The notes beneath the pieces were generated by a model. It had not been told where the DNA came from. It saw nothing but the letters and a program-made list of their open reading frames with translations, and did no database searches. The position numbers and the translations under genes were made by a program. Positions 10,699 to 34,123 of a DNA stretch of 34,123 nucleotides are shown piece after piece; position 1 is the stretch's first letter, and each line of letters begins with the position of its first letter. Origin of the DNA: a virus (Duplodnaviria > Heunggongvirae > Uroviricota > Caudoviricetes). The stretch is from IMG/VR virus record IMGVR_UViG_2541047783_000004; one strand, written 5' to 3'.

Positions 10699-10720
10699 AA
10701 AAAAGCCGCCCGCAGGCGGC
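10699..10720 (-). terminator. Putative rho-independent terminator after Q (minus strand)
   Basis: Minus-strand GCCGCC-TGCG-GGCGGC hairpin followed by TTTTTT, just downstream of the Q stop. Confidence 0.5.
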
Positions 10721-10725
10721 GATGT

Positions 10726-14560: not shown

Positions 14561-14618
14561 CCGGCGTCAGTCAGTCCGGGAAAACCTTCACGATTAACCC
14601 TTAATTTCAGGAAAAACT

Positions 14619-15692: not shown

Positions 15693-15695
15693 CCG

Positions 15696-16439: not shown

Positions 16440-16538
16440 CAACCGAATGCGCCCCGCGCCAGGGCGGCACGCCGGTCTGTGAGGGTGAATCACCTGACGC
16501 TGTACCGGCGTCCACCGCCCGACTTTTCAGAGGTAGTC

Positions 16539-17048: not shown

Positions 17049-17251
17049 TGAAGACCTTTGCGCTACAGGGCGACACGCTCGACGCCATTTGTGTCCGGTA
17101 TTACGGGCGCACTGAGGGCGTGGTTGAGACCGTGCTCGCCGCAAATCCGGGACTGGCTGAACTGGGCGCGATGCTGCCACACGGCACCGCCGTCGAACTG
17201 CCCGACGTTCAGACCGCGCCCGTAGCTGAAACTGTCAATCTGTGGGAGTAA
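17048..17251 (+). CDS. X: Tail protein X, 67 aa
   Basis: ATG at 17048 overlaps the L stop (TGATG); translation MKTFALQGDTLDAICVRYYGRTEGVVETVLAANPGLAELG... matches P2 gpX. Confidence 0.88.
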   Translation: MKTFALQGDTLDAICVRYYGRTEGVVETVLAANPGLAELGAMLPHGTAVELPDVQTAPVAETVNLWE

Positions 17252-17254
17252 CGC

Positions 17255-17536
17255 ATGACAGCAGAAGAAAAAAGCGTCCTGTCGCTTTTCATGATTGGGG
17301 TGCTGATTGTTGTCGGCAAGGTGCTTGCCGGTGGTGAACCCATCACCCCGCGTCTGTTTATCGGGCGCATGTTGCTCGGTGGTTTTGTCTCGATGGTTGC
17401 CGGTGTTGTTCTGGTGCAGTTTCCTGACCTGTCACTGCCTGCGGTGTGCGGTATCGGCTCCATGCTGGGTATCGCCGGTTATCAGGTGATTGAGATTGCC
17501 ATTCAGCGCCGTTTTAAGGGCAGGGGGAAACCGTAA
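17255..17536 (+). CDS. Y: Holin Y, 93 aa
   Basis: Small membrane protein with hydrophobic helices (SLFMIGVLIVVGKVLAGG..., GFVSMVAGVVLVQF...); matches P2 gpY. Confidence 0.9.
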   Translation: MTAEEKSVLSLFMIGVLIVVGKVLAGGEPITPRLFIGRMLLGGFVSMVAGVVLVQFPDLSLPAVCGIGSMLGIAGYQVIEIAIQRRFKGRGKP

Positions 17537-18033
17537 TGCCGGTAATTAACACGCATCAGAATATCGCCGCCTTTCTCGACATGCTGGCCGTGTCCGAAGG
17601 GACGGCGAATCATACGCTGACGAAAAACCGGGGCTATGACGTGATAGTCACCGGACTGGACGGGAAGCCGGAAATTTTCACCGACTACAGCGACCACCCG
17701 TTCGCGCATGGCCGACCAGCGAAGGTGTTTAACCGTCGCGGTGAAAAATCCACGGCCTCCGGTCGCTATCAGCAGCTTTACCTGTTCTGGCCGCATTACC
17801 GCAAACAGCTTGCCCTGCCGGATTTCAGTCCGTTGTCACAGGACAGGCTCGCCATTCAGTTGATCCGCGAATGCGGTGCACTGGATGACATCCGGGCGGG
17901 ACGCATTGAGCGCGCCATTTCACGCTGTCGCAATATCTGGGCGTCCCTGCCGGGTGCCGGTTACGGTCAGCGTGAGCATTCACTGGAAAAACTGGTCACC
18001 GTCTGGCGTACCGCTGGCGGCGTACCGGCTTAA
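17536..18033 (+). CDS. K: Endolysin K (lysozyme), 165 aa
   Basis: Translation MPVINTHQNIAAFLDMLAVSEGTANHTLTKNRGYDVIV... matches P2 gpK; TAATG overlap with Y. Confidence 0.92.
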   Translation: MPVINTHQNIAAFLDMLAVSEGTANHTLTKNRGYDVIVTGLDGKPEIFTDYSDHPFAHGRPAKVFNRRGEKSTASGRYQQLYLFWPHYRKQLALPDFSPLSQDRLAIQLIRECGALDDIRAGRIERAISRCRNIWASLPGAGYGQREHSLEKLVTVWRTAGGVPA

Positions 18034-18047
18034 ACGGAGTAAACACC

Positions 18048-18473
18048 ATGAAGAAATTATCCCTTTCACTGATGCTGAACGTGTCGCTGGCGCTGATGCT
18101 GGCACTGTCCCTGATTTACCCGCAGAGCGTGGCCGTCAGTTTTGTCGCTGCCTGGGCGATTCTGGCGACGGTTATCTGTGTGGTTGCCGGTGGTGTCGGC
18201 GTGTATGCCACGGAGTATGTGCTGGAACGCTACGGGCGGGAGCTGCCGCCGGAATCGCTGGCCGTGAAGATTGTCACGTCGCTGTTTTTGCAGCCGGTGC
18301 CGTGGCGCAGACGGGCGGCGGCTCTGGTGGTGATGGTGGCGACGTTTATCTCGCTGGTCGCTGCCGGGTGGATTTTTACCGCACTGATTTATCTCGTGGC
18401 ATCGCTGTTTTTCCGGCTGATACGTACGGCCTGCCGTCAGCGTTTTGAGGAGCGGCAACCATGTCAAAGCTGA
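18048..18473 (+). CDS. lysA: Lysis-timing membrane protein LysA, 141 aa
   Basis: Highly hydrophobic multi-helix protein at the P2 lysA position. Confidence 0.85.
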   Translation: MKKLSLSLMLNVSLALMLALSLIYPQSVAVSFVAAWAILATVICVVAGGVGVYATEYVLERYGRELPPESLAVKIVTSLFLQPVPWRRRAAALVVMVATFISLVAAGWIFTALIYLVASLFFRLIRTACRQRFEERQPCQS

Positions 18474-18886
18474 TGATTGTGATGGTTGTGTTGTTATCGC
18501 TGGCGGTGGTGGGGCTGTTTCTGGCGAAGCATGAAAACGCCAGCCTGCGCGCCTCGCTGGACAGGGTGAACAACGTCGCCAGTGAACAGCAGACGACCAT
18601 CACCATGCTGAAAAATCAGCTTCATGTTGCCCTCACCAGGGCAGACAAAAACGAGCTGGCGCAGGTGGCACTGCGTCAGGAACTGGAGAACGCCGCGAAG
18701 CGTGAAGCACAGCGCGAGAAAACCATCACGAGGTTACTGAATGAAAACGAAGATTTTCGCCGCTGGTACGGTGCTGATCTGCCTGATGCTGTGCGCCGGT
18801 TGCACCAGCGCCCGGCCTGCGCCGACGCCAGTGATTGTCCACAACTCCTGCCCGAAAGTGAGTCTTTGCCCGATGCCGGGCAGTGA
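18461..18886 (+). CDS. lysB: LysB, Rz-like inner-membrane spanin, 141 aa
   Basis: N-terminal transmembrane segment MSKLMIVMVVLLSLAVVGLFLA followed by a charged helical region; matches P2 LysB. Confidence 0.88.
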   Translation: MSKLMIVMVVLLSLAVVGLFLAKHENASLRASLDRVNNVASEQQTTITMLKNQLHVALTRADKNELAQVALRQELENAAKREAQREKTITRLLNENEDFRRWYGADLPDAVRRLHQRPACADASDCPQLLPESESLPDAGQ

Positions 18887-19031
18887 CCCGCAGACGAACG
18901 GCGATTTAAGTGCCGATATCCGGCAGCTTGAGAACGCGCTGGCACGTTGTGCCAGCCAGGTAAAAATGATTAAACACTGTCAGGACGAAAACGATGCTCA
19001 AACCCGACAGCCTGCGCAGGGCACTGACTGA
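18741..19031 (+). CDS. lysC: LysC, Rz1-like outer-membrane lipoprotein spanin, 96 aa, nested in another frame across the lysB 3' end
   Basis: Lipoprotein signal with lipobox LCAGC; proline-rich mature region; starts inside lysB as in P2. Confidence 0.85.
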   Translation: MKTKIFAAGTVLICLMLCAGCTSARPAPTPVIVHNSCPKVSLCPMPGSDPQTNGDLSADIRQLENALARCASQVKMIKHCQDENDAQTRQPAQGTD

Positions 19032-19461
19032 TGCCGTCACGGTGCTGAAAACCAGCCCCGAGATGCTGCGGATATTCATGGATAACGGGAGTATTGCCTC
19101 CACACTGGCGACGTCGCTGTCATTCGAAAAGCGTTACACGCTCAATGTGATTGTGACCGACTTTACCGGTGATTTTGACCTGCTCATCGTGCCGGTGCTG
19201 GCGTGGCTGCGGGAAAATCAGCCCGACATCATGACCACTGACGAAGGCCAGAAAAAGGGCTTCACGTTTTATGCAGACATCAACAATGACAGCAGCTTTG
19301 ATATCAGCATCAGCCTGATGCTGACCGAGCGCACGCTGGTCAGTGAGGTGGACGGCGCACTGCATGTGAAGAATATCCCGGAACCCACGCCGCCGGAGCC
19401 GGTCACCCGCCCGGTGGAGCTTTATATCAATGGCGAACTGGTGAGCAAGTGGGATGAATGA
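18994..19461 (+). CDS. R: Tail completion protein R, 155 aa
   Basis: Translation MLKPDSLRRALTDAVTVLKTSPEMLRIFMDNGSIAS... matches P2 gpR. Confidence 0.9.
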   Translation: MLKPDSLRRALTDAVTVLKTSPEMLRIFMDNGSIASTLATSLSFEKRYTLNVIVTDFTGDFDLLIVPVLAWLRENQPDIMTTDEGQKKGFTFYADINNDSSFDISISLMLTERTLVSEVDGALHVKNIPEPTPPEPVTRPVELYINGELVSKWDE

Positions 19462-19906
19462 GTTTAAGCGTTTTGAAGACCGGCTGACCGGACTGATTGA
19501 ATCGCTGTCACCGTCAGGGCGTCGGCGACTGAGCGCCGAACTGGCGAAACGTCTGCGGCAGAGTCAGCAGCGTCGGGTGATGGCTCAGAAAGCCCCGGAC
19601 GGCACACCCTACGCGCCACGCCAGCAGCAGAGCGCCAGAAAAAAGACTGGTCGTGTTAAGCGAAAAATGTTTGCGAAACTTATCACCAGTCGTTTTTTGC
19701 ATATCCGCGCCAGCCCGGAACAGGCATCAATGGAGTTTTACGGCGGGAAGTCACCGAAAATCGCCAGCGTGCATCAGTTCGGTCTGTCGGAAGAAACCCG
19801 GAAAGACGGTAAGAAAATTGATTATCCGGCGCGTCCTCTGCTCGGCTTTACCGGTGAGGATGTGCAGATGATTGAAGAGATTATTCTGGCGCACCTCGAC
19901 CGTTAG
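19454..19906 (+). CDS. S: Tail completion protein S, 150 aa
   Basis: Translation MNEFKRFEDRLTGLIESLSPSGRRRLSAELAKRLRQSQQRRV... matches P2 gpS; overlaps the R stop. Confidence 0.9.
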   Translation: MNEFKRFEDRLTGLIESLSPSGRRRLSAELAKRLRQSQQRRVMAQKAPDGTPYAPRQQQSARKKTGRVKRKMFAKLITSRFLHIRASPEQASMEFYGGKSPKIASVHQFGLSEETRKDGKKIDYPARPLLGFTGEDVQMIEEIILAHLDR

Positions 19907-19972
19907 TTGTGCCATCCCCGACACCTCATCGTCACATTGCCGCCGGTATGACCCGGCGGCATCCTTCCCGTT

Positions 19973-20608
19973 ATGAACACTCTCGCAAATATTCAGGAAC
20001 TCGCGCGCGCACTGCGCAACATGATTCGCACCGGCATTATCGTCGAAACCGACCTTAACGCCGGTCGCTGCCGTGTGCAGACCGGCGGCATGTGCACCGA
20101 CTGGCTTCAGTGGCTGACCTGTCGTGCCGGGCGTTCGCGCACATGGTGGGCACCTTCCGTGGGGGAGCAGGTGCTGATTCTGGCCGTGGGCGGTGAACTT
20201 GACACGGCGTTTGTTCTGCCGGGGATTTATTCCGGCGATAACCCCGCGCCGTCTGCGTCGGCGGATGCCCTGCATATCCGTTTCCCTGACGGGGCGGTGA
20301 TTGAGTATGAACCCGAAACCAGTGCACTCACGGTAAGCGGAATTAAAACGGCCAGCGTGACGGCTTCTGATTCTGTTACTGCCACGGTACCGGTGGTCAC
20401 GGTGAAAGCGTCAACCCGTGTCACCCTGGACACACCGGAAGTGGTCTGCACTAACAAACTGACTACCGGCACGCTGGAAGTGCAGAAGGGCGGGACGATG
20501 CGCGGCAACATTGAACACACCGGCGGTGAACTCTCATCAAACGGTAAGGTACTGCATACCCACAAACACCCCGGCGACAGCGGCGGCACAACCGGGAGTC
20601 CTTTATGA
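19973..20608 (+). CDS. V: Baseplate spike/assembly protein V, 211 aa
   Basis: Translation MNTLANIQELARALRNMIRTGIIVETDLNAGRCRVQTGGM... matches P2 gpV. Confidence 0.92.
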   Translation: MNTLANIQELARALRNMIRTGIIVETDLNAGRCRVQTGGMCTDWLQWLTCRAGRSRTWWAPSVGEQVLILAVGGELDTAFVLPGIYSGDNPAPSASADALHIRFPDGAVIEYEPETSALTVSGIKTASVTASDSVTATVPVVTVKASTRVTLDTPEVVCTNKLTTGTLEVQKGGTMRGNIEHTGGELSSNGKVLHTHKHPGDSGGTTGSPL

Positions 20609-20952
20609 CAGCGCGTTATCTCGGAATGAATCGCAGTGATGGCCTGACGGTCACTGACCTTGAGCATATCAGCCAGAGTATCGGCGATATCCTGCGCACA
20701 CCGGTCGGCTCACGGGTGATGCGTCGTGATTACGGCTCGTTGCTGGCGTCAATGATTGACCAGCCGCAGACTCCGGCGCTTGAGTTGCAGATTAAGGTCG
20801 CCTGTTACATGGCAGTGCTGAAATGGGAACCCCGCGTCACCCTGTCATCCGTCACCACGGCGCGCAGTTTTGACGGGCGAATGACGGTCACGTTAACCGG
20901 TCAGCACAACGACACCGGCCAGCCACTTTCGTTAACCATCCCTGTGAGTTGA
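20605..20952 (+). CDS. W: Baseplate wedge protein W (gp25-like), 115 aa
   Basis: Translation MTARYLGMNRSDGLTVTDLEHISQSIGDILRTPVGSRVMRRDYGS... matches P2 gpW; ATGA overlap with V. Confidence 0.92.
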   Translation: MTARYLGMNRSDGLTVTDLEHISQSIGDILRTPVGSRVMRRDYGSLLASMIDQPQTPALELQIKVACYMAVLKWEPRVTLSSVTTARSFDGRMTVTLTGQHNDTGQPLSLTIPVS

Positions 20953-20956
20953 AACC

Positions 20957-21865
20957 ATGCCGATTATCGACCTGAACCAGCTACCCGCACCGGATGTGGT
21001 CGAGGAGCTGGACTTTGAAACCATTCTTGCCGAACGCAAGGCGACACTGATTTCCCTTTACCCGGAAGACCAGCAGGAGGCGGTCGCCCGTACCCTGACG
21101 CTGGAATCCGAACCTCTCGTCAAACTGCTGGAGGAAAATGCTTATCGTGAGCTTATCTGGCGTCAGCGTGTGAATGAGGCCGCACGGGCGGTAATGCTGG
21201 CCTGTGCCGCCGGTAATGACCTTGATGTGATTGGTGCCAATTACAACACCACGCGCCTGATTATCACCCCGGCAGATGATTCGACCCTCCCGCCGACACC
21301 GGCAGTGATGGAATCTGATACCGATTATCGTCTGCGTATTCAGCAGGCGTTTGAGGGCTTAAGCGTCGCCGGGTCGGTGGGTGCCTATCAGTATCATGGT
21401 CGCAGTGCCGACGGGCGTGTCGCAGATATCTCTGTCACCAGTCCGTCTCCGGCCTGCGTCACCATCTCCGTGCTGTCACGTGAAAATAACGGTGTGGCAT
21501 CCGAAGACCTGCTGGCGGTGGTGCGTAACGCCCTTAATGGCGAGGACGTCAGGCCGGTGGCCGACCGCGTGACCGTGCAGTCTGCCGCCATTGTTGAATA
21601 CCAGATAAACGCCACGCTTTACCTTTACCCTGGTCCCGAAAGCGAACCCATCCGCGCCGCCGCCGTGAAAAAACTGGAAGCGTATATCACGGCACAGCAC
21701 CGGCTGGGGCGTGACATCCGTCTGTCTGCCATTTATGCCGCTTTGCATGTGGAAGGCGTGCAGCGTGTCGAGCTGGCCGCACCACTGGCCGACATTGTGC
21801 TCAACAGTACGCAGGCGTCTTTCTGCACCGAATACAGCGTCGTGACCGGAGGCTCGGATGAGTGA
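20957..21865 (+). CDS. J: Baseplate protein J, 302 aa
   Basis: Translation MPIIDLNQLPAPDVVEELDFETILAERKATLISLYPEDQQ... matches P2 gpJ. Confidence 0.92.
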   Translation: MPIIDLNQLPAPDVVEELDFETILAERKATLISLYPEDQQEAVARTLTLESEPLVKLLEENAYRELIWRQRVNEAARAVMLACAAGNDLDVIGANYNTTRLIITPADDSTLPPTPAVMESDTDYRLRIQQAFEGLSVAGSVGAYQYHGRSADGRVADISVTSPSPACVTISVLSRENNGVASEDLLAVVRNALNGEDVRPVADRVTVQSAAIVEYQINATLYLYPGPESEPIRAAAVKKLEAYITAQHRLGRDIRLSAIYAALHVEGVQRVELAAPLADIVLNSTQASFCTEYSVVTGGSDE

Positions 21866-22469
21866 TTCGCGCCTGCTGCCGACCGGCTCATCACCGCTTG
21901 AAGTCGCCGCCGCAAAAGCCTGTGCGGAAATTGAAAAAACGCCGGTCAGTATTCGTGAGCTGTGGAACCCGGATACCTGTCCGGCAAATCTGCTGCCGTG
22001 GCTGGCGTGGTCATTTTCGGTTGACCGCTGGGATGATAAGTGGCCGGAAGCGACAAAACGCGCTGTTATCCGCGATGCGTATTTCATTCACTGCCATAAG
22101 GGCACTATTGGTGCGATTCGCCGTGTGGTGGAGCCACTCGGCTATCTGATTGAGGTGAGGGAGTGGTGGCAGCTCAACGAGGAGCCGGGGACGTTCCGTA
22201 TCGTTGTCGGCGTGCTTGAGCAGGGTATTACCGAGGAAATGTATCAGGAGCTGGAGCGCCTCGTTGCTGATGCAAAACCGGCAAGCCGCCATCTGACGGG
22301 ACTGGCTATCAGTTTAAGTACAACCGGCAACATTTTTGCCGGTGCGGGATGCTATCACGGTGACGCCCTGACGGTTTATCCCTACACCCCGGAGGCCATT
22401 ATTGTCGGAGGGGATTATTTCCCGGCCTCGGCCATTCATTTAATTGATAACCTGAGAGTAAACGCATGA
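21858..22469 (+). CDS. I: Baseplate protein I, 203 aa (longer than the 176 aa I recall for P2 gpI)
   Basis: Translation [51 protein letters not shown]... matches P2 gpI N-terminally; C-terminus differs and is extended. Confidence 0.88.
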
Positions 22470-23665
22470 CAGTGAAATACTACGCCATTCTGACTAATCA
22501 GGGCGCAGCACGGCTGGCTAACGCGACGATGCTCGGCAGTAAGCTGAATCTGACGCAAATGGCCGTTGGTGATGCGAATGGTGTCTTGCCGACACCAGAC
22601 CCGGCACAGACAAAACTGATTAACCAGAAACGCATCGCGCCGCTGAATCTTCTGAGTGTTGACCCGAACAACCAGAGCCAGATTATTGCGGAGCAAATCA
22701 TCCCTGAGAACGAGGGCGGATTCTGGATCCGTGAGATTGGGCTTTATGATGATGAAGGCGTACTCATTGCGGTGGCGAACTGCCCGGAAACGTACAAACC
22801 GCAGTTGCAGGAAGGCAGCGGTCGTACCCAGACTATCCGCATGATTCTGGTTGTCACGAATACCGAAGCCATCACGCTGAAAATCGACCCGTCGGTGGTA
22901 CTGGCGACCCGTAAATACGTGGATGATGAAGTCCTGGAATTAAAGCTGTATGTGGATGACCAGATGAGAAACCACATTGCCGCACAGGATCCTCATACCC
23001 AGTATGCACAGAAACATAATCCGACATTTACCGGAGAACCAAAAGCGCCGACGCCTGCCGCAGGAAATAACACCACGCGGATTGCGACCACTGCGTTTGT
23101 ACAGGCCGCTATCACCGCTCTGATTAACGGTGCGCCTGCCACGCTGGATACACTGAAAGAAATTGCCGCAGCCATTAACAATGACCCGAAATTCAGCACC
23201 ACCATTAACAATGCGCTGTCAGGTAAGCAGCCACTGGATGAGACGCTGACTCATTTGAGTGGGAAGGATGTTGCCGGTCTTCTCGCATACCTTGGTTTGG
23301 GAGAAGCGGCAAAACGGGGTGTGGGAACAGGGGAAAATCAGATACCGGACATGGCTTCATTTAGTGGGGTGAGGGATTATTACGGAAAACAACTTTTGCC
23401 AGGAGGGTTGATACTTCAGTGGCTGACGATTCCATCAAGTGCAGCAGCTAAAGCTGTAACACTGAATAATGGTAATTATCAGCTGTCAGGCTATAAATGG
23501 CCCCAGTCATTTGGTGTCCTGTTTGCTGTGTTTGCTACAAAAGTTTCTGGCTCGACTAACGAAGCATATGCAATCTCAGTTAATCGTCACTCTACCGATG
23601 TAATTGTCACTTGGAATGCCCGTAAGGCTGATGATGTCCACATTTTAGGAATTGGGAAATTATGA
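22466..23665 (+). CDS. H: Tail fibre protein H, 399 aa; constant N-terminal part fused to the currently expressed variable C-terminal cassette
   Basis: N-terminal 250 aa or so resemble P2 gpH ([22 protein letters not shown]...EGSGR); the gene is crossed by the left inversion site at 23280..23305; ATGA overlap with I. Confidence 0.85.
23280..23305. repeat. Left crossover site of the invertible tail-fibre segment (gix/hix-like, 26 bp) inside H
   Basis: TTCTCGCATACC-TT-GGTTTGGGAGAA is an inverted copy of the right site at 25153..25178 (15-bp perfect core TTGGTTTGGGAGAAG / CTTCTCCCAAACCAA); half-sites resemble the Gin/Hin consensus TTATCnAAACC. Confidence 0.7.
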
Positions 23666-24081
23666 AAATGAAATGGTCCCCATCTGTTCAGGGATTTTTC
23701 TCTGAAAATAACAGCGATATTCCCGATGATGCTTTCGATATTGAAGATGCTCTTTATTATGAACTTATGAATGGTCAGAGTACGGGGAAAATTATTATCA
23801 ATAACCCGGATAACTACCCTGTACTTACTGAATATCCAGCGAAGACACAGGAACAGGAAATAGCTGAAGCGGAGGGAATGAAAAGTATACTTATTGAACA
23901 GGCCAACGAATACATGAACAGTAAGCAATGGCCTGGTAAAGCCGCTATTGGTCGTCTGAAAGGTGAGGAACTGGCGCAATATAATTTGTGGCTGGATTAT
24001 CTGGACGCACTGGAACTGGTTGATACCTCCAGTGCGCCAGATATTGAATGGCCTACGCCTCCGGCAGTTCAGGCCAGATGA
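23662..24081 (+). CDS. Tail fibre assembly chaperone (gpG/Tfa-like), 139 aa, in the expressed orientation
   Basis: Immediately follows H with an ATGA overlap; C-terminal ...[23 protein letters not shown] is echoed in the inverted paralogue ([25 protein letters not shown]). Confidence 0.8.
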
Positions 24082-24655
24082 CATCCGGCGCGGTGCTGGT
24101 ATCTGTTGCCGTCACCGAGTCAATGTAATCCAGCACAGCGTTAAGTCGGGTGTTTTCTGTCTGCGTCAGCTTCCGCCCGGCCTGTAATTTCAGTTGAATC
24201 AGACTGATGGAAGCCATTGCAGCATCAATCAGCGACTGGCGCTGTGCTTCTGCCGCTTCTACTGCGGCGCTATGCTGTGCCTCAGTATTGGTCACCCATT
24301 TCTCACCATCCCATTTATCGTATGGCGTTAACGGTGCGAGAGTGGTTGTATTTTCGGGATAGTCGCCTGGTGCTGTGATTTCTTTGGCATCTCCCGTTTC
24401 GGTGTTGTAGACAATTTCACCGCGATGGTCTGGCACATATTCCCATGAGTTAAAATCTGCAGAACGGCAGATTGCATAACCAGCTTTATGTGTAACTGGT
24501 GCATCTAAACAAGAACATGCCGGGATACCGACGCCAACCGCAAGATATTCAGTTGATGAGGAAATATATTCCCGCGTTTCACCATCATAATTATAAATGG
24601 TAATGTCTCCCGCTTTTATGGCAATGAGTTCGTTATTTAATACGGCTTTATTCAT
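24053..24655 (-). CDS. Alternative tail fibre assembly chaperone (Tfa'), 200 aa, inverted orientation
   Basis: Convergent with and overlapping the 3' end of the plus-strand tfa; shares its C-terminal motif; follows the Sv' cassette on the minus strand with a TGATG overlap. Confidence 0.75.
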   Translation of the reverse strand: MNKAVLNNELIAIKAGDITIYNYDGETREYISSSTEYLAVGVGIPACSCLDAPVTHKAGYAICRSADFNSWEYVPDHRGEIVYNTETGDAKEITAPGDYPENTTTLAPLTPYDKWDGEKWVTNTEAQHSAAVEAAEAQRQSLIDAAMASISLIQLKLQAGRKLTQTENTRLNAVLDYIDSVTATDTSTAPDVIWPELPEA

Positions 24656-25165
24656 CAGGCAGCCCTCACGATATAATTAAAGGCAATGTTACGAGGACGG
24701 TTTTCGTTTGCAGTTGGAACAATTCTTGAAGCATCAAGGCCAATCACTTTTGGGTAAACAGCGCCATCTGTTCTTTCTGTCACCATACTTCTGATTAAGG
24801 AGAAATAACTATTGTTCGTTGAGGGGTTCAAAGGCACCACTGCCCCCTTAAACGAGCCTACTGATTCCCATATTGAATAATTTTCGGTGTTTACAGTCTT
24901 GAACTCACCATAGATATTACGTATGGCATCGCCCTGAGCTGATAATATTGCCCTCCCCGTATCCATACCACGTCCGTCATCCCAGCCACGAATAAACTCA
25001 CCACGTAAATCAGGCAATTTATTTGTCGGGTAAGCCTTTGCCAGTTCCGGGTATTCTTCAGCAGAAAAAGCTGCTCCGTTGCATTTTAGCCAGCCTGTTG
25101 GCGGAGTGGCTGAGGGCCACGGAACAGGCACACCAACGGGTAATGCCGAACCTTCTCCCAAACCA
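24655..25165 (-). CDS. Silent alternative tail-fibre C-terminal cassette (Sv'), about 170 codons, with no start of its own in this orientation
   Basis: The minus-strand frame reads ...FLNVGLGEGSALPVGVPVPWP..., continuing in frame through the right crossover site, where GLGE matches the LAYLGLGE junction in H; inversion would fuse it to the H constant region. Confidence 0.65.
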
Positions 25166-25178
25166 ACGTTTAAGAAAA
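25153..25178. repeat. Right crossover site of the invertible segment (gix/hix-like, 26 bp)
   Basis: TTCTCCCAAACC-AA-CGTTTAAGAAAA; inverted repeat of 23280..23305; lies just upstream of the invertase gene. Confidence 0.7.
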
Positions 25179-25233
25179 TGCAGAGATTATGGCTAACTGG
25201 CATCATCTCCGGTTTTTATTCAGGGGGATGCTC

Positions 25234-25827
25234 ATGCTTATTGGCTATGTACGCGTGTCAACAAATGACCAGAACACGGAATTGCAGCGTAATGCGCTGG
25301 AGTGCGCAGGATGTGAGCTGATTTTTGAGGACAAAATCAGCGGCACGAAGTCCGACAGGCCGGGGCTGAAAAAACTGCTCAGAACATTATCGGAAGGTGA
25401 CACTCTGGTTGTCTGGAAGCTGGACAGGCTGGGGCGTAGTATGCGGCATCTGGTCATTCTGGTTGAGGAACTGCGCGAACGCGGCGTTAATTTTCGCAGC
25501 CTGACGGATGCTATTGATACCAGCACGCCGATGGGGCGTTTTTTCTTTCATGTGATGGGTGCCCTGGCTGAAATGGAGCGAGAACTCATTGTCGAGCGGA
25601 CACGCGCCGGACTGGAAGCGGCCAGAGCCAAAGGTCGTATTGGTGGCAGACGACCGAAACTCACCGCGAGTGAGTGGGAGCAGGCCGGGCGTTTGCTGGC
25701 TGCAGGGGAGTCACGTCAACGCGTGGCACTGATTTTTGATATTGGTCTGTCCACGCTCTATAAAAAATTTCCCTCATCAGCGACAAAGAATAAATTGTGT
25801 CATCCCTTAGCCAACCGGGACAAATAG
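25234..25827 (+). CDS. Site-specific DNA invertase, serine recombinase of the Gin/Hin/Cin/Pin family, 197 aa
   Basis: Internal ATG at 25234 with AGGGGG Shine-Dalgarno; translation MLIGYVRVSTNDQNTELQRNAL...LVVWKLDRLGRSMRHL...GRIGGRRPKL...LSTLYKK has the catalytic Ser in YVRVSTNDQ and a C-terminal helix-turn-helix. Confidence 0.92.
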   Translation: MLIGYVRVSTNDQNTELQRNALECAGCELIFEDKISGTKSDRPGLKKLLRTLSEGDTLVVWKLDRLGRSMRHLVILVEELRERGVNFRSLTDAIDTSTPMGRFFFHVMGALAEMERELIVERTRAGLEAARAKGRIGGRRPKLTASEWEQAGRLLAAGESRQRVALIFDIGLSTLYKKFPSSATKNKLCHPLANRDK

Positions 25828-25886
25828 CCTGACATCTCCGGCACAACTGAAAATATCACTCACCCATTAACCACGGAGTTAAACGG

Positions 25887-27077
25887 ATGAGTGACTATCA
25901 TCACGGCGTGCAGGTGCTGGAGATTAACGACGGCACCCGCGTCATTTCCACCGTATCCACTGCCATTGTCGGCATGGTCTGCACGGCCAGCGATGCGGAT
26001 GCGGAAACCTTCCCCCTCAATAAACCTGTGCTGATTACCAATGTGCAGAGCGCAATTGCAAAGGCCGGTAAAAAAGGCACGCTGGCGGCATCGTTGCAGG
26101 CCATCGCTGACCAGTCAAAACCGGTCACCGTTGTCGTGCGCGTGGAAGACGGCACCGGTGATGACGAGGAAACGAAACTCGCGCAGACCGTTTCCAATAT
26201 CATCGGCACCACTGACGAAAACGGTCAGTACACCGGACTGAAAGCCCTGCTGGCGGCGGAGTCGGTAACCGGTGTTAAGCCGCGTATTCTCGGTGTGCCG
26301 GGGCTGGATACCAAAGAGGTTGCCGTCGCACTGGCATCAGTCTGTCAGAAGCTGCGCGCTTTCGGATATATCAGCGCATGGGGCTGTAAAACCATTTCCG
26401 AGGTGAAAGCCTACCGCCAGAATTTCAGCCAGCGTGAGCTGATGGTCATCTGGCCGGATTTCCTCGCATGGGATACGGTTGCCAGTACCACCACCACCGC
26501 GTATGCCACCGCCCGTGCGCTGGGTCTGCGTGCCAGAATTGACCAGGAGCAGGGCTGGCATAAAACGCTGTCCAATGTCGGGGTGAACGGTGTTACCGGC
26601 ATCAGCGCCTCTGTATTCTGGGATTTGCAGGAGTCCGGCACCGATGCTGACCTGCTTAACGAGTCAGGCGTCACTACGCTGATTCGCCGTGACGGTTTCC
26701 GATTCTGGGGTAACCGTACCTGCTCGGATGACCCGCTGTTCCTCTTTGAAAACTACACCCGCACCGCGCAGGTGCTGGCCGACACGATGGCTGAAGCGCA
26801 CATGTGGGCGGTGGACAAGCCTATCACCGCAACGCTGATTCGCGACATCGTTGACGGCATTAATGCCAAATTCCGTGAGCTGAAAACAAACGGCTATATC
26901 GTGGATGCGACCTGCTGGTTCAGCGAAGAATCCAACGATGCGGAAACCCTCAAGGCCGGAAAACTGTATATCGACTACGACTATACACCGGTGCCTCCTC
27001 TTGAAAACCTGACCCTGCGCCAGCGTATTACCGATAAATACCTGGCAAATCTGGTCACCTCGGTTAACAGCAATTAA
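25887..27077 (+). CDS. FI: Tail sheath protein FI, 396 aa
   Basis: Translation MSDYHHGVQVLEINDGTRVISTVSTAIVGMVCTASDADAETFPLNKPVLI... matches P2 gpFI; GGAG Shine-Dalgarno upstream. Confidence 0.93.
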   Translation: MSDYHHGVQVLEINDGTRVISTVSTAIVGMVCTASDADAETFPLNKPVLITNVQSAIAKAGKKGTLAASLQAIADQSKPVTVVVRVEDGTGDDEETKLAQTVSNIIGTTDENGQYTGLKALLAAESVTGVKPRILGVPGLDTKEVAVALASVCQKLRAFGYISAWGCKTISEVKAYRQNFSQRELMVIWPDFLAWDTVASTTTTAYATARALGLRARIDQEQGWHKTLSNVGVNGVTGISASVFWDLQESGTDADLLNESGVTTLIRRDGFRFWGNRTCSDDPLFLFENYTRTAQVLADTMAEAHMWAVDKPITATLIRDIVDGINAKFRELKTNGYIVDATCWFSEESNDAETLKAGKLYIDYDYTPVPPLENLTLRQRITDKYLANLVTSVNSN

Positions 27078-27089
27078 GGAGCCTGACCG

Positions 27090-27608
27090 ATGGCAATGCC
27101 GCGCAAACTCAAGTTAATGAACGTCTTTCTGAACGGCTACAGCTATCAGGGCGTCGCGAAGTCCGTCACGCTACCAAAACTGACCCGTAAGCTCGAAAAC
27201 TATCGCGGTGCGGGGATGAACGGCAGCGCACCGGTAGACCTCGGCCTTGATGACGATGCGCTGTCAATGGAGTGGTCGCTCGGTGGCTTCCCGGATTCGG
27301 TTATCTGGGAGCTTTACGCCGCAACCGGTGTGGATGCCGTCCCGATTCGTTTTGCAGGCTCTTACCAGCGCGACGATACCGGCGAAACGGTGGCCGTCGA
27401 GGTGGTCATGCGTGGACGTCAGAAAGAAATCGACACCGGCGAGGGCAAACAGGGAGAAGACACCGAGTCGAAAATCTCCGTGGTCTGCACCTATTTCCGG
27501 CTGACGATGGACGGTAAGGAGCTGGTCGAAATCGACACCATCAACATGATTGAGAAGGTGAACGGCGTCGACCGGCTGGAGCAACACCGCCGCAATATCG
27601 GCCTGTGA
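27090..27608 (+). CDS. FII: Tail tube protein FII, 172 aa
   Basis: Translation MAMPRKLKLMNVFLNGYSYQGVAKSVTLPKLTRKLENYRGAGMNG... matches P2 gpFII; AAGGAG Shine-Dalgarno upstream. Confidence 0.93.
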   Translation: MAMPRKLKLMNVFLNGYSYQGVAKSVTLPKLTRKLENYRGAGMNGSAPVDLGLDDDALSMEWSLGGFPDSVIWELYAATGVDAVPIRFAGSYQRDDTGETVAVEVVMRGRQKEIDTGEGKQGEDTESKISVVCTYFRLTMDGKELVEIDTINMIEKVNGVDRLEQHRRNIGL

Positions 27609-27664
27609 TTTTCATCCGGTCAGCCTGGCTGACCGGTTAACCCCGATTCAGAAGTGAGAAAACC

Positions 27665-27940
27665 ATGAACAAAGAAAATGTGATTACCCTGGACAATCCG
27701 GTCAAGCGTGGTGAGCAGGTTATCGAACAGGTCACGCTGATGAAACCTAATGCCGGGACGCTGCGCGGTGTCAGTCTGGCTGCGGTCGCAAACTCCGAAG
27801 TCGATGCACTGATTAAGGTGCTGCCGCGCATGACGGCACCGATGCTGACCGAGCAGGAGGTCGCCGCGCTGGAACTGCCTGACCTTGTGGCGCTGGCCGG
27901 TAAGGTGGTCGGTTTTTTGTCTCCGAACTCGGTGCAGTGA
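27665..27940 (+). CDS. E: Tail assembly chaperone E, 91 aa
   Basis: Translation MNKENVITLDNPVKRGEQVIEQVTLMKPNAGTLRGVSLAAVANSEVDALIKVLPRMTAPMLTEQEVAALELPDLVALAGKVVGFLSPNSVQ matches P2 gpE. Confidence 0.9.
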   Translation: MNKENVITLDNPVKRGEQVIEQVTLMKPNAGTLRGVSLAAVANSEVDALIKVLPRMTAPMLTEQEVAALELPDLVALAGKVVGFLSPNSVQ

Positions 27941-28092
27941 CGTTTCCGAAAAATCTGTCGGTCGATGACCTGATGGCAGATGTGGCAGTGATATTTCACT
28001 GGCCGCCATCAGAACTGTATCCCATGAGCCTGACCGAACTCATCACATGGCGCGAAAAGGCGCTCCGGCGAAGCGGAAACACGAATGAGTAA
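27665..28092 (+). CDS. E': E+E' programmed -1 frameshift product (tail assembly chaperone long form)
   Basis: Slippery heptamer T_TTT_TTG at 27913..27919 near the end of E; the -1 frame continues open (...VSELGAVTFPKNLSVDDLMADVAVIFHWPPSELYPMSLTELITWREKALRRSGNTNE) to TAA at 28090..28092, overlapping the T start. Confidence 0.75.
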
Positions 28093-30532
28093 CAATGTAA
28101 AATTACAGGTATTGCTCAGGGCTGTTGACCAGGCATCCCACCCGTTTAAATCCATCCGCACAGCGAGCAAATCGCTGTCGGGGGATATCCGGGAAACACA
28201 AAAATCACTGCGCGAGCTGAACGGTCAGGCATCCCGTATTGAGGGATTTCGCAAGACCAGTGCACAGCTCGCCGTGACTGGTCATGCACTTGAAAAGGCA
28301 CGGCAGGAGGCCGAAGCCCTTGCCACACAGTTTAAAAACACCGAACGTCCGACACGTGCTCAGGCGAAGGTGCTGGAATCCGCGAAGCGTGCGGCAGAGG
28401 ACTTACAGGCGAAATATAACCGCCTGACGGATTCCGTTAAACGCCAGCAGCGGGAACTGGCCGTTGTGGGAATTAATACCCGCAATCTTGCACATGATGA
28501 GCAGGGACTGAAAAACCGTATCAGTGAAACCACCGCCCAGCTTAACCGGCAGCGTGACGCGCTGGCGCGTGTCAGTGCACAACAGGCAAAACTTAACGCA
28601 GTCAAACAGCGTTATCAGGCCGGAAAGGAACTGGCCGGAAATATGGTCTCAGTTGGCGCTGCCGGTGTGGGGATTGCGGCGGCGGGAACGATGGCCGGTG
28701 TTAAGCTGTTGATGCCCGGTTATGAGTTTGCGCAGAAAAACTCAGAATTGCAGGCCGTGCTAGGTGTGGCAAAAGACTCCGCCGAAATGGCCGCGCTCCG
28801 CAAGCAGGCGCGCCAGCTCGGCGATAATACCGCCGCCTCGGCGGATGATGCAGCCGGTGCGCAGATTATCATTGCGAAAGCCGGCGGGAATGTTGATGCC
28901 ATTCAGGCGGCAACGCCGGTCACGCTGAATATGGCGCTGGCGAACCGTCGCACGATGGAAGAAAACGCCGCCCTGTTGATGGGGATGAAATCCGCCTTTC
29001 AGCTTTCAAACGATAAGGTCGCTCATATCGGGGATGTTCTCTCCATGACGATGAACAAAACCGCCGCCGATTTTGACGGCATGAGCGATGCGCTGACCTA
29101 TGCCGCACCTGTGGCAAAAAATGCCGGTGTCAGCATTGAAGAAACCGCCGCAATGGTCGGGGCGCTGCATGATGCAAAAATTACCGGTTCAATGGCGGGG
29201 ACGGGAAGCCGTGCCGTGTTAAGCCGCCTGCAGGCACCGACGGGAAAAGCATGGGATGCACTGAAAGAGCTTGGTGTGAAAACCTCAGACAGCAAGGGAA
29301 ACACCCGACCAATATTTACCATTCTGAAAGAAATGCAGGCCAGTTTTGAGAAAAACCGGCTCGGTACTGCCCAGCAGGCTGAATACATGAAAACCATTTT
29401 CGGGGAGGAGGCCAGCTCAGCCGCCGCCGTGCTGATGACTGCCGCCTCAACCGGAAAGCTGGACAAACTGACCGCTGCGTTTAAAGCCTCAGACGGGAAG
29501 ACCGCCGAGCTGGTAAATATCATGCAGGACAACCTCGGCGGTGACTTTAAGGAGTTTCAGTCCGCTTATGAGGCGGTGGGGACAGACCTGTTTGACCAGC
29601 AGGAAGGCGCACTGCGTAAACTCACTCAGACGGCCACAAAGTATGTGTTAAAACTCGACGGCTGGATCCAGAAAAACAAATCACTGGCGTCAACCATCGG
29701 CCTCATTGTCGGTGGCGCGCTGGCGCTTATTGGCATCATCGGTGCCATTGGTCTTGTAGCATGGCCGGTTATCACCGGCATCAATGCCATTATCGCGGCA
29801 GCAGGCGCAATGGGGGCAATCTTCATGACGGTTGGCAGTGCTGTTATGACGGCCATCGGGGCGATTAGCTGGCCGGTTGTGGCCGTGGTGGCCGCCATTG
29901 TCGCCGGGGCGTTGCTTATCCGTAAATACTGGGAGCCTGTCAGCGCATTCTTTGGCGGTGTGGTGGAAGGGCTGAAAGCGGCATTTGCGCCGGTGGGGGA
30001 GCTGTTCACGCCACTGAAACCGGTGTTTGACTGGCTGGGCGAAAAGTTACAGGCCGCGTGGCAGTGGTTTAAAAACCTGATTGCCCCGGTCAAAGCCACA
30101 CAGGACACCCTGAACCGTTGCCGTGACACGGGCGTCATGTTCGGGCAGGCACTGGCTGACGCGCTGATGCTGCCGCTTAATGCGTTCAACAAACTGCGCA
30201 GCGGTATTGACTGGGTACTGGAAAAGCTCGGGGTCATCAACAAAGAGTCAGACACACTTGACCAGACCGCCGCCAGAACTCATGCCGCCACGTATGGCAC
30301 CGGTGGTTATATTCCGGCGACCAGCTCTTATGCAGGCTATCAGGCTTATCAGCCGGTCACGGCACCGGCTGGCCGCTCTTATGTGGACCAGAGTAAAAAC
30401 GAATATCACATCAGCCTGACGAGTGGTACTGCGCCGGGGACACAGCTTGACCGCCAGTTACAGGATGCGCTCGAAAAATACGAGCGGGATAAACGTGCGC
30501 GCGCCCGTGCCAGCATGATGCATGACGGTTAA
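28085..30532 (+). CDS. T: Tail tape measure protein T, 815 aa
   Basis: Translation MSNNVKLQVLLRAVDQASHPFKSIRTASKSLSGDIRETQKSLREL...; long helical protein with a hydrophobic Gly/Ala-rich central region; matches P2 gpT in size and position. Confidence 0.93.
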   Translation: MSNNVKLQVLLRAVDQASHPFKSIRTASKSLSGDIRETQKSLRELNGQASRIEGFRKTSAQLAVTGHALEKARQEAEALATQFKNTERPTRAQAKVLESAKRAAEDLQAKYNRLTDSVKRQQRELAVVGINTRNLAHDEQGLKNRISETTAQLNRQRDALARVSAQQAKLNAVKQRYQAGKELAGNMVSVGAAGVGIAAAGTMAGVKLLMPGYEFAQKNSELQAVLGVAKDSAEMAALRKQARQLGDNTAASADDAAGAQIIIAKAGGNVDAIQAATPVTLNMALANRRTMEENAALLMGMKSAFQLSNDKVAHIGDVLSMTMNKTAADFDGMSDALTYAAPVAKNAGVSIEETAAMVGALHDAKITGSMAGTGSRAVLSRLQAPTGKAWDALKELGVKTSDSKGNTRPIFTILKEMQASFEKNRLGTAQQAEYMKTIFGEEASSAAAVLMTAASTGKLDKLTAAFKASDGKTAELVNIMQDNLGGDFKEFQSAYEAVGTDLFDQQEGALRKLTQTATKYVLKLDGWIQKNKSLASTIGLIVGGALALIGIIGAIGLVAWPVITGINAIIAAAGAMGAIFMTVGSAVMTAIGAISWPVVAVVAAIVAGALLIRKYWEPVSAFFGGVVEGLKAAFAPVGELFTPLKPVFDWLGEKLQAAWQWFKNLIAPVKATQDTLNRCRDTGVMFGQALADALMLPLNAFNKLRSGIDWVLEKLGVINKESDTLDQTAARTHAATYGTGGYIPATSSYAGYQAYQPVTAPAGRSYVDQSKNEYHISLTSGTAPGTQLDRQLQDALEKYERDKRARARASMMHDG

Positions 30533-30546
30533 GGAGGTGACGAAAA

Positions 30547-31026
30547 ATGATGCTCGCGTTAGGTATGTTTGTTTTTATGCGCCAGACGCTGCCACACCAG
30601 ACCATGCAGCGTGAATCAGATTATCGCTGGCCGTCAAATTCCCGTGTCGGCAAACGGGATGCCTTTCAGTTTCTCGGTGTGGGTGAGGAAAACATTACGC
30701 TTGCCGGTGTGCTTTATCCCGAACTGACCGGCGGAAAGCTGACGATGACCACGCTCAGACTGATGGCAGAGGAAGGCCGGGCGTGGCCGTTGCTGGATGG
30801 CACCGGAATGATTTACGGCATGTATGTCATCAGCAGGGTGAGTGAAACAGGGTGTATTTTCTTTGCAGACGGCACACCCCGAAAAATTGATTTTACGCTG
30901 TCGCTCACCCGCGTTGATGAATCACTGGCCGCGCTTTATGGCGATATCGGTAAACAGGCGGAATCGCTCATCGGTAAGGCCGGCAGTATGGCGACCAGAT
31001 TCACGGGTATGACGGGGGCGGGATAA
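30547..31026 (+). CDS. U: Tail protein U, 159 aa
   Basis: Translation MMLALGMFVFMRQTLPHQTMQRESDYRWPSNSRVGKRDAFQFLGVGEENITLAG... matches P2 gpU. Confidence 0.92.
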   Translation: MMLALGMFVFMRQTLPHQTMQRESDYRWPSNSRVGKRDAFQFLGVGEENITLAGVLYPELTGGKLTMTTLRLMAEEGRAWPLLDGTGMIYGMYVISRVSETGCIFFADGTPRKIDFTLSLTRVDESLAALYGDIGKQAESLIGKAGSMATRFTGMTGAG

Positions 31027-32189
31027 TGCTGGATGCGCTGACATTTGATGCAGGCAGTACGCTGACACCGGATTACATGCTGATGCTCGACAGCAGGGAT
31101 ATTACCGGCAATATCAGCGACCGTCTGATGAGCATGACCCTGACGGATAACCGGGGCTTTGAGGCTGACCAGCTTGATATTGAACTGAACGATGCCGACG
31201 GGCAGGTCGGACTGCCGGTTCGTGGCGCTGTCCTGACGGTGTATATCGGCTGGAAAGGTTTTGCCCTGGTATGCAAAGGGAAATTCACCGTTGATGAGGT
31301 TGAACACCGGGGCGCGCCGGATGTGGTCACCATCCGCGCCCGGAGTGCAGATTTCCGCGGGACGCTCAATTCCCGCCGTGAAGGTTCCTGGCATGACACC
31401 ACGCTCGGTGCGATTGTTGAGGCGATAGCCTCCCGTAACAGGCTGGAAGCCAGTGTCGCTCCGTCACTGGCCGGAATTAAAATCCCGCACATCGACCAGT
31501 CGCAGGAGTCTGATGCGAAATTCCTGACCCGTCTTGCAGAACGCAACGGCGGTGAGGTGTCGGTAAAAATGGGAAAACTGTTGTTTCTCAAAGCGGGGCA
31601 GGGGGTGACGGCCAGCGGTAAAAAAATCCCGCAGGTCACCATCACCCGCAGCGACGGCGACCGTCATCATTTTGCGATTGCTGACCGTGGAGCCTATACC
31701 GGCGTTACGGCAAAGTGGTTACACACCAAAGACCCGAAGCCACAAAAGCAGAAGGTAAAACTGAAACGCAAAAAGAAAGAAAAACACCTGCGCGCACTGG
31801 AGCACCCGAAAGCAAAACCGGTCACGCAGAAGAAAGCGCCAAAAGTACCGGAAGCGCGCGAAGGTGAATACATGGCCGGTGAGGCTGACAACGTTTTTGC
31901 ACTGACCACGGTATATGCCACGAAAGCACAGGCCATGCGCGCCGCTCAGGCGAAGTGGGATAAACTGCAACGGGGTGTAGCGGAGTTCTCCATCAGTCTG
32001 GCTACTGGTCGGGCAGATATTTACACGGAAACGCCGGTCAAAGTGTCAGGCTTTAAGCGCGTCATAGACGAGCAGGACTGGACAATCACTAAGGTGACAC
32101 ATTTTCTGAATAATAGCGGCTTCACGACGTCCTTGGAGCTTGAGGTCAGGCTTTCTGATGTGGAGTACGAAACCGAAGATGATGAGTGA
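31026..32189 (+). CDS. D: Tail protein D (late control gene D), 387 aa
   Basis: Translation MLDALTFDAGSTLTPDYMLMLDSRDITGNISDRLMSMTLTDNRGFEADQLDIELNDADG... matches P2 gpD; TAATG overlap with U. Confidence 0.92.
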   Translation: MLDALTFDAGSTLTPDYMLMLDSRDITGNISDRLMSMTLTDNRGFEADQLDIELNDADGQVGLPVRGAVLTVYIGWKGFALVCKGKFTVDEVEHRGAPDVVTIRARSADFRGTLNSRREGSWHDTTLGAIVEAIASRNRLEASVAPSLAGIKIPHIDQSQESDAKFLTRLAERNGGEVSVKMGKLLFLKAGQGVTASGKKIPQVTITRSDGDRHHFAIADRGAYTGVTAKWLHTKDPKPQKQKVKLKRKKKEKHLRALEHPKAKPVTQKKAPKVPEAREGEYMAGEADNVFALTTVYATKAQAMRAAQAKWDKLQRGVAEFSISLATGRADIYTETPVKVSGFKRVIDEQDWTITKVTHFLNNSGFTTSLELEVRLSDVEYETEDDE

Positions 32190-32270
32190 TGTTTTTGTTT
32201 TATCTGTTTGTTTTATAAGAATAAATTAACTAAAATGGCACCATCAACAAAACCGGAAGAGGTGCTCGCG

Positions 32271-32489
32271 ATGTTTCATTGTCCTTTATGCCAGCATGCC
32301 GCACATGCGCGTACAAGTCGCTATATCACTGACACGACAAAAGAGCGTTATCACCAGTGCCAGAACGTGAATTGCAGCGCCACGTTCATCACTTATGAGT
32401 CGGTACAGCGATACATCGTGAAGCCGGGAGAAGTCCACGCCGTAAGGCCGCACCCGTTGCCGTCAGGGCAGCAAATTATGTGGATGTAA
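32271..32489 (+). CDS. ogr: Ogr, zinc-finger activator of late transcription, 72 aa
   Basis: Internal ATG at 32271; translation MFHCPLCQHAAHARTSRYITDTTKERYHQCQNVNCSATFITYESVQRYIVKPGEVHAVRPHPLPSGQQIMWM matches P2 Ogr, with four Cys in CPLC...CQNVNC. Confidence 0.93.
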   Translation: MFHCPLCQHAAHARTSRYITDTTKERYHQCQNVNCSATFITYESVQRYIVKPGEVHAVRPHPLPSGQQIMWM

Positions 32490-32501
32490 TTACAAACAGA
32501 A

Positions 32502-32527
32502 AGCCCCTCAGTCGAGGGGCTTTTTTG
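32502..32527 (+). terminator. Rho-independent terminator after ogr
   Basis: GCCCCTC-AGTC-GAGGGGC hairpin followed by TTTTTT. Confidence 0.75.
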
Positions 32528-32590
32528 TCGATGTGGTCAATGTGTGGACGTGACCAGAAATAAATCCTTTTATTTCATTGTATTACGCGT

Positions 32591-32617
32591 AAAAAATAAG
32601 CCCGTGTAAGGGAGATT
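32591..32617. repeat. attR core, 27-bp direct repeat; doubles as the 3' terminator segment of cyaR
   Basis: Identical to 1790..1816; the minus-strand reading gives AATCTCCCTTACACGGGCTTATTTTTT, a hairpin plus U-tract. Confidence 0.85.
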
Positions 32618-32677
32618 ACACAGGCTAAGGAGGTGGTTCCTGGTACAGCTAGCATTTTATGGGTTATGTTTTTCAGC
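32591..32677 (-). ncRNA. cyaR: CyaR (RyeE) Hfq-dependent small RNA, about 87 nt
   Basis: Minus-strand sequence GCTGAAAAACATAACCCATAAAATGCTAGCTGTACCAGGAACCACCTCCTTAGCCTGTGTAATCTCCCTTACACGGGCTTATTTTTT matches E. coli CyaR as I recall it, including the anti-Shine-Dalgarno seed CACCUCCUUA and terminator hairpin; sits next to yegQ as in E. coli K-12. Confidence 0.8.
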
Positions 32678-32761
32678 GAAACGGATGATAACCTTAATAA
32701 ATGCAGCTGTATGTGATCGGTTTCTAAGAATTTTCCATCCGGGAAAAATAATCGAAATTAA

Positions 32762-34123
32762 TCACTTACCGTGGGGGTTACGCGTGGTTTCCCCGGAGAA
32801 ATTACGCATCAGGAGCGCGTAATTTAGCTCAAGATCCTGCGGGACCGGGAGCCACACAGTATAACCATCGCCTGGTGCGACCGGCATAGCTTCACCTTTG
32901 GCGTTTTCCATGTGCTCAAGGGTAAAGTTAATGTTGCCTTGCGGCGTCATCAGCTCAAGGCTGTCACCAACGGAGAATTTATTTTTCACCGCTACCGCCG
33001 CGAGGTCGCCCTTGCGCTCACCGGTAAACTCACCAACAAACTGCTGGCGGTCAGAAACTGAATAACCGTATTCGTAGTTCTGATAATCGTCGTGAGTATG
33101 ACGACGCAGGAAACCTTCGGTATAGCCACGATGCGCCAGACCTTCCAGAGTTTCCAGCAGGCTGGTATCGAATGGTTTTCCCGCAGCTGCGTCATCGATA
33201 GCTTTACGGTAAACCTGCGCGGTGCGTGCGCAATAGTAGAAAGATTTGGTACGGCCTTCGATTTTCAGCGAATGCACTCCCATTTTGGTCAGGCGTTCTA
33301 CATGGGCGATGGCGCGCAGATCTTTCGAGTTCATGATGTAAGTGCCGTGCTCATCTTCAAACGCGGTCATATACTCGCCCGGACGCTGGGCCTCTTCGAT
33401 CATAAACACTTTGTCGGTTGGTGCGCCGATACCCAGCGTCGGCTCAACATTTTGCACCGGAATCGGCTCGTACTTGTGTACGATGTTGCCAACGTCATCT
33501 TCTTTCCCTTCCTGGACGTTGTATTCCCAGCGGCAGGCGTTGGTGCAGGTGCCCTGGTTCGGGTCGCGCTTGTTGATATAGCCAGAGAGCAGGCAGCGAC
33601 CGGAGTAGGCCATGCACAGCGCGCCGTGAACGAAGATCTCTACCTCCATATCCGGCACCTGATTGCGGATCTCTTCAATCTCTTCCAGCGACAGCTCGCG
33701 AGAGAGGATCACGCGGGTCAGGCCCATTTGCTGCCAGAATTTCACCGTCGCCCAGTTCACGGCGTTAGCCTGTACCGAGAGATGGATCGGCATTTCAGGG
33801 AAGTGCTCACGCACCAGCATAATCAGCCCTGGATCGGACATAATCAGCGCATCCGGCCCCATTTCCACCACCGGTTTCAGGTCACGGATAAAGGTTTTCA
33901 GCTTGGCGTTGTGCGGTGCAATGTTGACCACGACATAAAACTTTTTCCCCAGCGCGTGGGCTTCATTGATGCCGAGCTGGAGATTTTCGTGGTTAAATTC
34001 GTTGTTGCGCACACGCAGGGAGTAACGCGGCTGGCCCGCATAAACAGCATCTGCGCCATAAGCGAAAGCGTAACGCATATTTTTCAGCGTTCCCGCCGGG
34101 GAAAGGAGTTCCGGTTTAAACAT
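32762..34123 (-). CDS. yegQ: Peptidase U32-family protein YegQ (TrhP, tRNA hydroxylation), 453 aa, complete
   Basis: Translation MFKPELLSPAGTLKNMRYAFAYGADAVYAGQPRYSLRVRNNEFNHENL... matches E. coli YegQ; start codon is the complement of 34121..34123. Confidence 0.9.
   Translation of the reverse strand: MFKPELLSPAGTLKNMRYAFAYGADAVYAGQPRYSLRVRNNEFNHENLQLGINEAHALGKKFYVVVNIAPHNAKLKTFIRDLKPVVEMGPDALIMSDPGLIMLVREHFPEMPIHLSVQANAVNWATVKFWQQMGLTRVILSRELSLEEIEEIRNQVPDMEVEIFVHGALCMAYSGRCLLSGYINKRDPNQGTCTNACRWEYNVQEGKEDDVGNIVHKYEPIPVQNVEPTLGIGAPTDKVFMIEEAQRPGEYMTAFEDEHGTYIMNSKDLRAIAHVERLTKMGVHSLKIEGRTKSFYYCARTAQVYRKAIDDAAAGKPFDTSLLETLEGLAHRGYTEGFLRRHTHDDYQNYEYGYSVSDRQQFVGEFTGERKGDLAAVAVKNKFSVGDSLELMTPQGNINFTLEHMENAKGEAMPVAPGDGYTVWLPVPQDLELNYALLMRNFSGETTRNPHGK

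Follow-up and report, generated by a model that had tools for sequence, protein, structure and literature searches.

The window, by which we mean the whole 34,123-nucleotide stretch of DNA analysed, is 100% identical at both junction queries to Escherichia coli Q65 (RefSeq record NZ_CP180222.1, PGAP annotation; locus L145). It carries a P2-like prophage, the right end of which abuts the small RNA gene cyaR. The features of this right end are as follows, strands being given for those features that have one.

32271..32489, plus strand: ogr, late-gene activator of 72 aa (PF04606; ogrK in the source record annotation)
32500..32526, plus strand: ogr/F-operon intrinsic terminator, hairpin and T-run (P2 annotation, 100% alignment, terminator scan)
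32528..32592: predicted Int sites of the P arm at 32528-32555 and a predicted IHF site at 32559-32592, placed by alignment to annotated P2
32591..32617: attR core copy, 27 bp (28-bp exact repeat at 32590-32617), equal to CyaR nt 63-89 (repeat and P2 attP alignment)
32591..32677, minus strand: cyaR (CyaR/RyeE sRNA gene), intact (Rfam RF00112; identical to the empty-site and K-12-type copies)
32599..32626, minus strand: CyaR intrinsic terminator hairpin, 11-bp stem with loop UCUCCC (fold, terminator scan, Rfam structure line)
32712..32727: CRP-like site TGTGATCGGTTTCTAA, centred ~42 bp upstream of the cyaR start (pattern match)
32762..34123, minus strand: yegQ/trhP, host gene flanking cyaR (Pfam Peptidase_U32 and annotation)

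The Rfam family RF00112 (CyaR/RyeE) matched positions 32594-32679 of the minus strand with 100.7 bits against a gathering score of 47 (E 3e-19). This match, the sole Rfam match within the window, was full-length and covered model positions 1-85 of 85. A sequence-only reading of this DNA had placed an 87-nt cyaR at 32591-32677 on the minus strand; this is the same gene as the Rfam call with the last Us of the tail included, the two being offset by at most 3 nt. Folding of the minus strand gave a small hairpin with a C/U-rich loop followed by the 11-bp terminator stem, as expected for CyaR. By both the fold and the terminator scan, 32626-32616 pair with 32609-32599 around the loop UCUCCC (32615-32610), and the tail UAUUUUUU follows at 32598-32591. 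The C/U-rich anti-SD loop AACCACCUCC upstream of the terminator is present in the Rfam alignment, and yegQ (32762-34123) adjoins cyaR, which is the conserved synteny of CyaR. As the RefSeq record leaves cyaR unannotated, the identity of the gene rests on the Rfam match and on its identity to the K-12-type locus, and the overlap of prophage and sRNA is therefore invisible in public annotation. A scan of the window for tRNA and tmRNA genes found none and hence the integration target is not a tRNA.

Upstream of cyaR, a CRP half-site (TCACA) had been predicted to lie within 32705-32730. The motif is found there on the cyaR strand, inside TGTGATCGGTTTCTAA at 32712-32727. By itself the relaxed CRP pattern occurs at chance level (20 matches versus 14.8 expected), and the weight given to TGTGATCGGTTTCTAA derives from the 100% identity of the cyaR upstream region to that of the K-12-type locus. 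The promoter scan found no sigma-70 consensus promoter upstream of cyaR, which is as expected for an activator-dependent promoter and hence uninformative.

Pairwise alignment of the two prophage ends gave an exact 28-bp direct repeat, TAAAAAATAAGCCCGTGTAAGGGAGATT, at 1789-1816 and 32590-32617 (spacing 30801 bp), which includes the 27-bp attP core of phage P2. A direct-repeat family (D4) pairs the somewhat longer stretches 1782-1816 and 32583-32617, and a 34-nt pattern spanning the right core copy had 0 matches in 100 dinucleotide-preserving shuffles. The core had been described as the reverse complement of the CyaR 3' terminator. This holds for the loop, the descending arm and the U-tract, but for only 2 of the 11 nucleotides of the ascending arm; the other nine (32618-32626) are outside the repeat, in host chromosomal DNA. 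The att core is the 3' two-thirds of the CyaR terminator and not the whole hairpin. The left end of the prophage has the following features.

1315..1632, plus strand: yegR, host-side gene left of attL (annotation)
1700..1789: attB host-side flank, homologous to the P2 right end (repeat family D1 and alignments)
1790..1816: attL core copy, 27 bp (28-bp exact repeat at 1789-1816; repeat and P2 attP alignment)
1817..32590: body of the P2-like (Peduovirus) prophage, running from int to ogr, with 30.8 kb separating the two cores (P2 identity and Pfam)
1833..1930: predicted binding region of Cox, with predicted Int P' arm sites, placed by alignment to annotated P2
1896..2909, minus strand: int, tyrosine integrase (PF24624 and PF00589; aligns to P2 int)

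The attL core is a promoterless 27-nt 3' fragment of cyaR that lacks the ascending arm. Because phage DNA replaces that arm, the attL copy folds into no terminator, and the terminator scan of the attL region (1200-2000) found no terminator-like sites. The possibility that the attL core together with phage DNA acts as the terminator of int was considered and rejected, as the fold had no hairpin at the core.

We compared the junctions with those expected from phage P2 (GenBank AF063097), in which the attP core (24356-24382), the P arm, the IHF site, the Cox sites and the P' arm are annotated. Each end of the prophage has one copy, in direct repeat, of a 27-bp core that does not differ from that of P2 attP. 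In the alignments attR consists of the P2 left half (ogr, its terminator, the P arm and the IHF site) followed by the core and host DNA, and attL consists of host DNA followed by the core and the P2 right half (the Cox region, the P' arm and int). Identity to P2 is complete at the P-arm Int sites and at the ogr terminator, and a few substitutions separate the IHF region and the Cox/P' arm region from the P2 counterparts to which they align. Predicted Int arm-binding repeats (consensus tgTGGaCa in the P2 phylogeny of PMC3448106) flank the core on both sides, with the IHF and Cox sites, those of the P' arm being the putative sites TGTGGACAC at 1905-1913 and 1916-1924. The ogr terminator had been put about 65 bp from cyaR on the opposite strand and proved to be there: its hairpin (32500-32526) lies 64 bp from the CyaR 3' end, in convergent orientation. 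P2 and this prophage have int, cox and ogr in common and share a host position between yegR and cyaR/yegQ. This position is presumably the P2 site called locI, the preferred site in E. coli C. The prophage is nevertheless a relative of P2 and not P2 itself, with 96.5% DNA identity to P2 over the int-A region.

The unoccupied site of E. coli GN25 (locus L001) reads yegS-yegR-cyaR-yegQ. Base for base, it is the left flank of the window plus one core plus the right flank of the window, and hence the arrangement is that of site-specific integration of the textbook kind, in which the target gene is regenerated. Between the GN25 empty site, the lysogen and the K-12-type locus of HB101, the sole K-12-type strain examined at this level, there is no difference in CyaR, in the region upstream of it or in the first nucleotide past the U-tract. 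Alignment to the K-12 cyaR locus had been suggested as a check, and the window agrees with the K-12-type HB101 over both the gene and the region upstream of it. The HB101 locus is not naive: a P2 remnant with the same junction is present, composed of ogrK and a D' fragment (a pseudogene), and across the stretch aligned the ogr terminator, the P arm, the IHF region and the core-cyaR junction of HB101 are those of the window. Barreiro and Haggard-Ljungquist reportedly described the K-12 ogr-D' remnant in 1992. If MG1655 matches HB101, the CyaR characterised in K-12 would already sit in a "lysogen" context.

The GN25 empty site, the P2 attP alignment and the intact cyaR gene together uphold the central proposal of the sequence-only reading, a P2-type prophage in the cyaR terminator with the att core restoring the 3' end of the sRNA. 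We are highly confident that a P2-type prophage has integrated at the classical P2 site, the one overlapping the cyaR 3' end, and that the right junction is its attR. The alternative is that the repeat is no att site but a terminator-like sequence arisen by chance or duplication, and that the phage region came in some other way, for instance through homologous recombination with an earlier remnant. The host flank already has P2-arm-like sequence and recombination with resident remnants is conceivable in principle, but the arm-like homology (repeat family D1) is only 73% over 44 nt, and the junctions coincide exactly with the annotated ends of the P2 core. Moreover, identical junctions recur across hundreds of genomes: the yegR-integrase junction was found, at a coverage of at least 80%, in 812 of 5426 complete E. 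coli genomes (~15%), and the ogr-cyaR junction was found in 1126 of the 5426. The single core of the GN25 empty site and the reconstruction of that site from the window effectively refute arrival by a route other than attachment-site recombination, which we regard as extremely improbable.

Integration at the P2 site would proceed by way of a tyrosine integrase acting on a 27-bp core that is also the last 27 nt of the presumably CRP-activated cyaR gene. The phage attP holds an exact copy of those 27 nucleotides, so recombination within the core leaves the loop, descending arm and U-tract at attR unchanged. It also leaves the promoterless 27-nt tail fragment of cyaR at attL, beside int. We infer that Int, IHF and Cox have here the roles they have in P2, and that this strain produces and terminates CyaR as K-12 does.

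The exact 27-mer core was present in 21 stretches of the species-representative genome set, these being from Escherichia, Shigella, many Kluyvera and two records labelled Enterobacter hormaechei. Thirteen loci were scanned, and in all 12 loci with an Rfam cyaR (Escherichia, Shigella, Kluyvera and Enterobacter-labelled) the core lay at the cyaR 3' end; in the thirteenth, from E. ruysiae, it was an attL copy adjoining P2 DNA. The core also occurred in more than 120 viral contigs among the matches listed. The two loci titled Enterobacter hormaechei (L004 and L015) have a cyaR that scores 100.7 bits, as does the E. coli copy, together with an exact P2 core, and their sequences beyond the core differ. 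Either their cyaR is conserved or the records are mislabelled.

That a P2-type prophage lies at the cyaR terminator is real, was correctly read, is common and is already known. Archer et al. 2011 (PMC3032704, Table 2) give "cyaR RNA" as the insertion site of Wphi2, a P2-type prophage of E. coli W, and also as the site occupied by ogr-D' in K-12 and by P2*B in strain B; rybB, ssrA and tRNA genes are among the other insertion sites in that table. Wphi2, P2*B and ogr-D' are thus P2-type elements at the cyaR RNA gene, as here, but in other strains. The P2 phylogeny (PMC3448106) describes P2-type sites as mostly intergenic, notes that long cores keep tRNA genes intact and makes no mention of cyaR. 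Our literature search found no explicit mechanistic statement on cyaR as a P2 attachment site, the sole explicit listing being Table 2 of PMC3032704. The arrangement resembles those of other elements that target tRNA, tmRNA or sRNA genes, such as P2-type elements at rybB, 186 at tRNA-Ile, and Fels-2 and SopE-phi at ssrA. Such 3'-end integrators, like this prophage, have in attP a second copy of the 3' end of a small structured RNA gene, which is thereby regenerated on integration (PMC3448106; PMC3032704, Table 2). In contrast to them, the overlap with cyaR is a short one of 27 nt that does not take in the full terminator hairpin, and the regenerated gene is at the int-distal (ogr) end of the prophage. 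The case confirms the known rule that the 3' ends of genes for small structured RNAs are targets of temperate phages, which bring along a copy of the part that would otherwise be lost, and the exact prophage boundaries and the intact cyaR are of value chiefly for correct annotation.

The sequence-only reading had further suggested that lysogeny might alter CyaR termination or lead to collision with ogr transcription. The sequence lends this no support: the RNA through the U-tract plus one nucleotide is the same in the lysogen, the GN25 empty site and HB101, and hence the primary termination signal of CyaR is unaltered by integration. Any effect of integration must therefore come from read-through: transcripts leaking through the CyaR terminator would meet different DNA depending on whether the site is occupied. 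In lysogens and K-12-type strains the ogr terminator, met from its reverse face, would halt read-through after another 64-90 nt and so give a longer product, estimated at ~180 nt, whereas in empty-site strains read-through would run antisense across yegR. The ogr terminator (32500-32526) scores as terminator-like on both strands owing to an A-run upstream and T-rich sequence downstream of the hairpin, its tail on the cyaR strand being CUGUUUGU. At the empty site the next terminator-like site on the cyaR strand is ~630 nt downstream, past yegR, with none found in the window at 1200-1789. The ogr/F-operon terminator could also shield ogr from antisense transcription entering from cyaR.

In a delta-hfq strain with a double-terminator plasmid construct (cyaR-rplLT), 41% of transcription passed the CyaR terminator (PMC9765468, 2022), and thus read-through is not negligible in that setting, although the figure is for a plasmid without Hfq and not for the chromosome. 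The terminators that would catch the read-through come from consensus scans, which are no proof of function, and the primary signal is one and the same in lysogen, empty site and HB101. We therefore think it rather unlikely that occupancy has a regulatory consequence of this kind, in which strain-dependent CyaR 3' isoforms or silencing of yegR would result and the expression of yegR or ogr could differ. Cross-strain comparisons of CyaR 3' end formation should nonetheless account for site occupancy.

The host side of attL suggests an older history of the attachment site. The attB host flank contains a decayed ogr terminator and a P-arm site, TCGATGTGGTCAATG, that matches at 15 of 15 positions, and an Escherichia sp. 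locus (L024) also retains a homologue of the IHF region. In E. ruysiae and three Kluyvera genomes yegR is absent and yegS starts ~85-95 nt from the core; the homology of E. coli to this arrangement ends at ~993 (loci compared: L017, L008, L012, L013 and L024). At that point, at 988-1014, is a decayed, ungapped copy of the core with 18 of 27 matches; the two true cores apart, a search of both strands of the window gave a single further position with as many as 18. The segment from there to the intact core (1015-1789, ~775 bp) holds yegR and is of lower GC (0.31-0.47 in 200-nt windows). The yegR segment lies between a decayed and an intact core and ends in a decayed P2 right arm. The "empty" E. 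coli attB looks like a scar, 1015-1789 being apparently what is left of an earlier element with the same core, of which only the cyaR-side core copy seems to have been preserved. The cyaR terminator may therefore have received P2-family elements already before yegR entered the E. coli lineage, though we give this reading a low probability.

Within the prophage, Pfam domains of Int, Cox, GPA, portal, GPD and Ogr were found, and int and cox are intact by Pfam. Two parts of the prophage set it apart from P2. One is a cargo gene of 739 aa (7990-10209, minus strand) that lies between gene A and the portal gene and takes the position held by old/tin in P2. Its product was assigned to AAA_13 by Pfam (E 2e-102) and to the candidate defence family PDC-S06 by PADLOC (E 4e-253), and its C-terminal part is PrrC-like; the gene is probably an anti-phage defence moron. 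The other, which P2 lacks, is an invertible tail-fibre cassette with a serine invertase at 22466-25827, which has the following parts.

22466-23665, plus strand: tail fibre H
23662-24081, plus strand: tail-fibre assembly protein
24053-24655, minus strand: alternative tail-fibre assembly protein
24655-25206, minus strand: alternative collar-domain C-terminus
25189-25827: serine invertase, Resolvase and HTH_7 (Pfam)

The minus-strand ORFs of 24053-25206 were considered as defence genes and rejected, as neither of the two had a PADLOC match and Pfam identified them as tail-fibre parts. The module resembles the host-range switching systems of Mu (Gin) and P1 (Cin).
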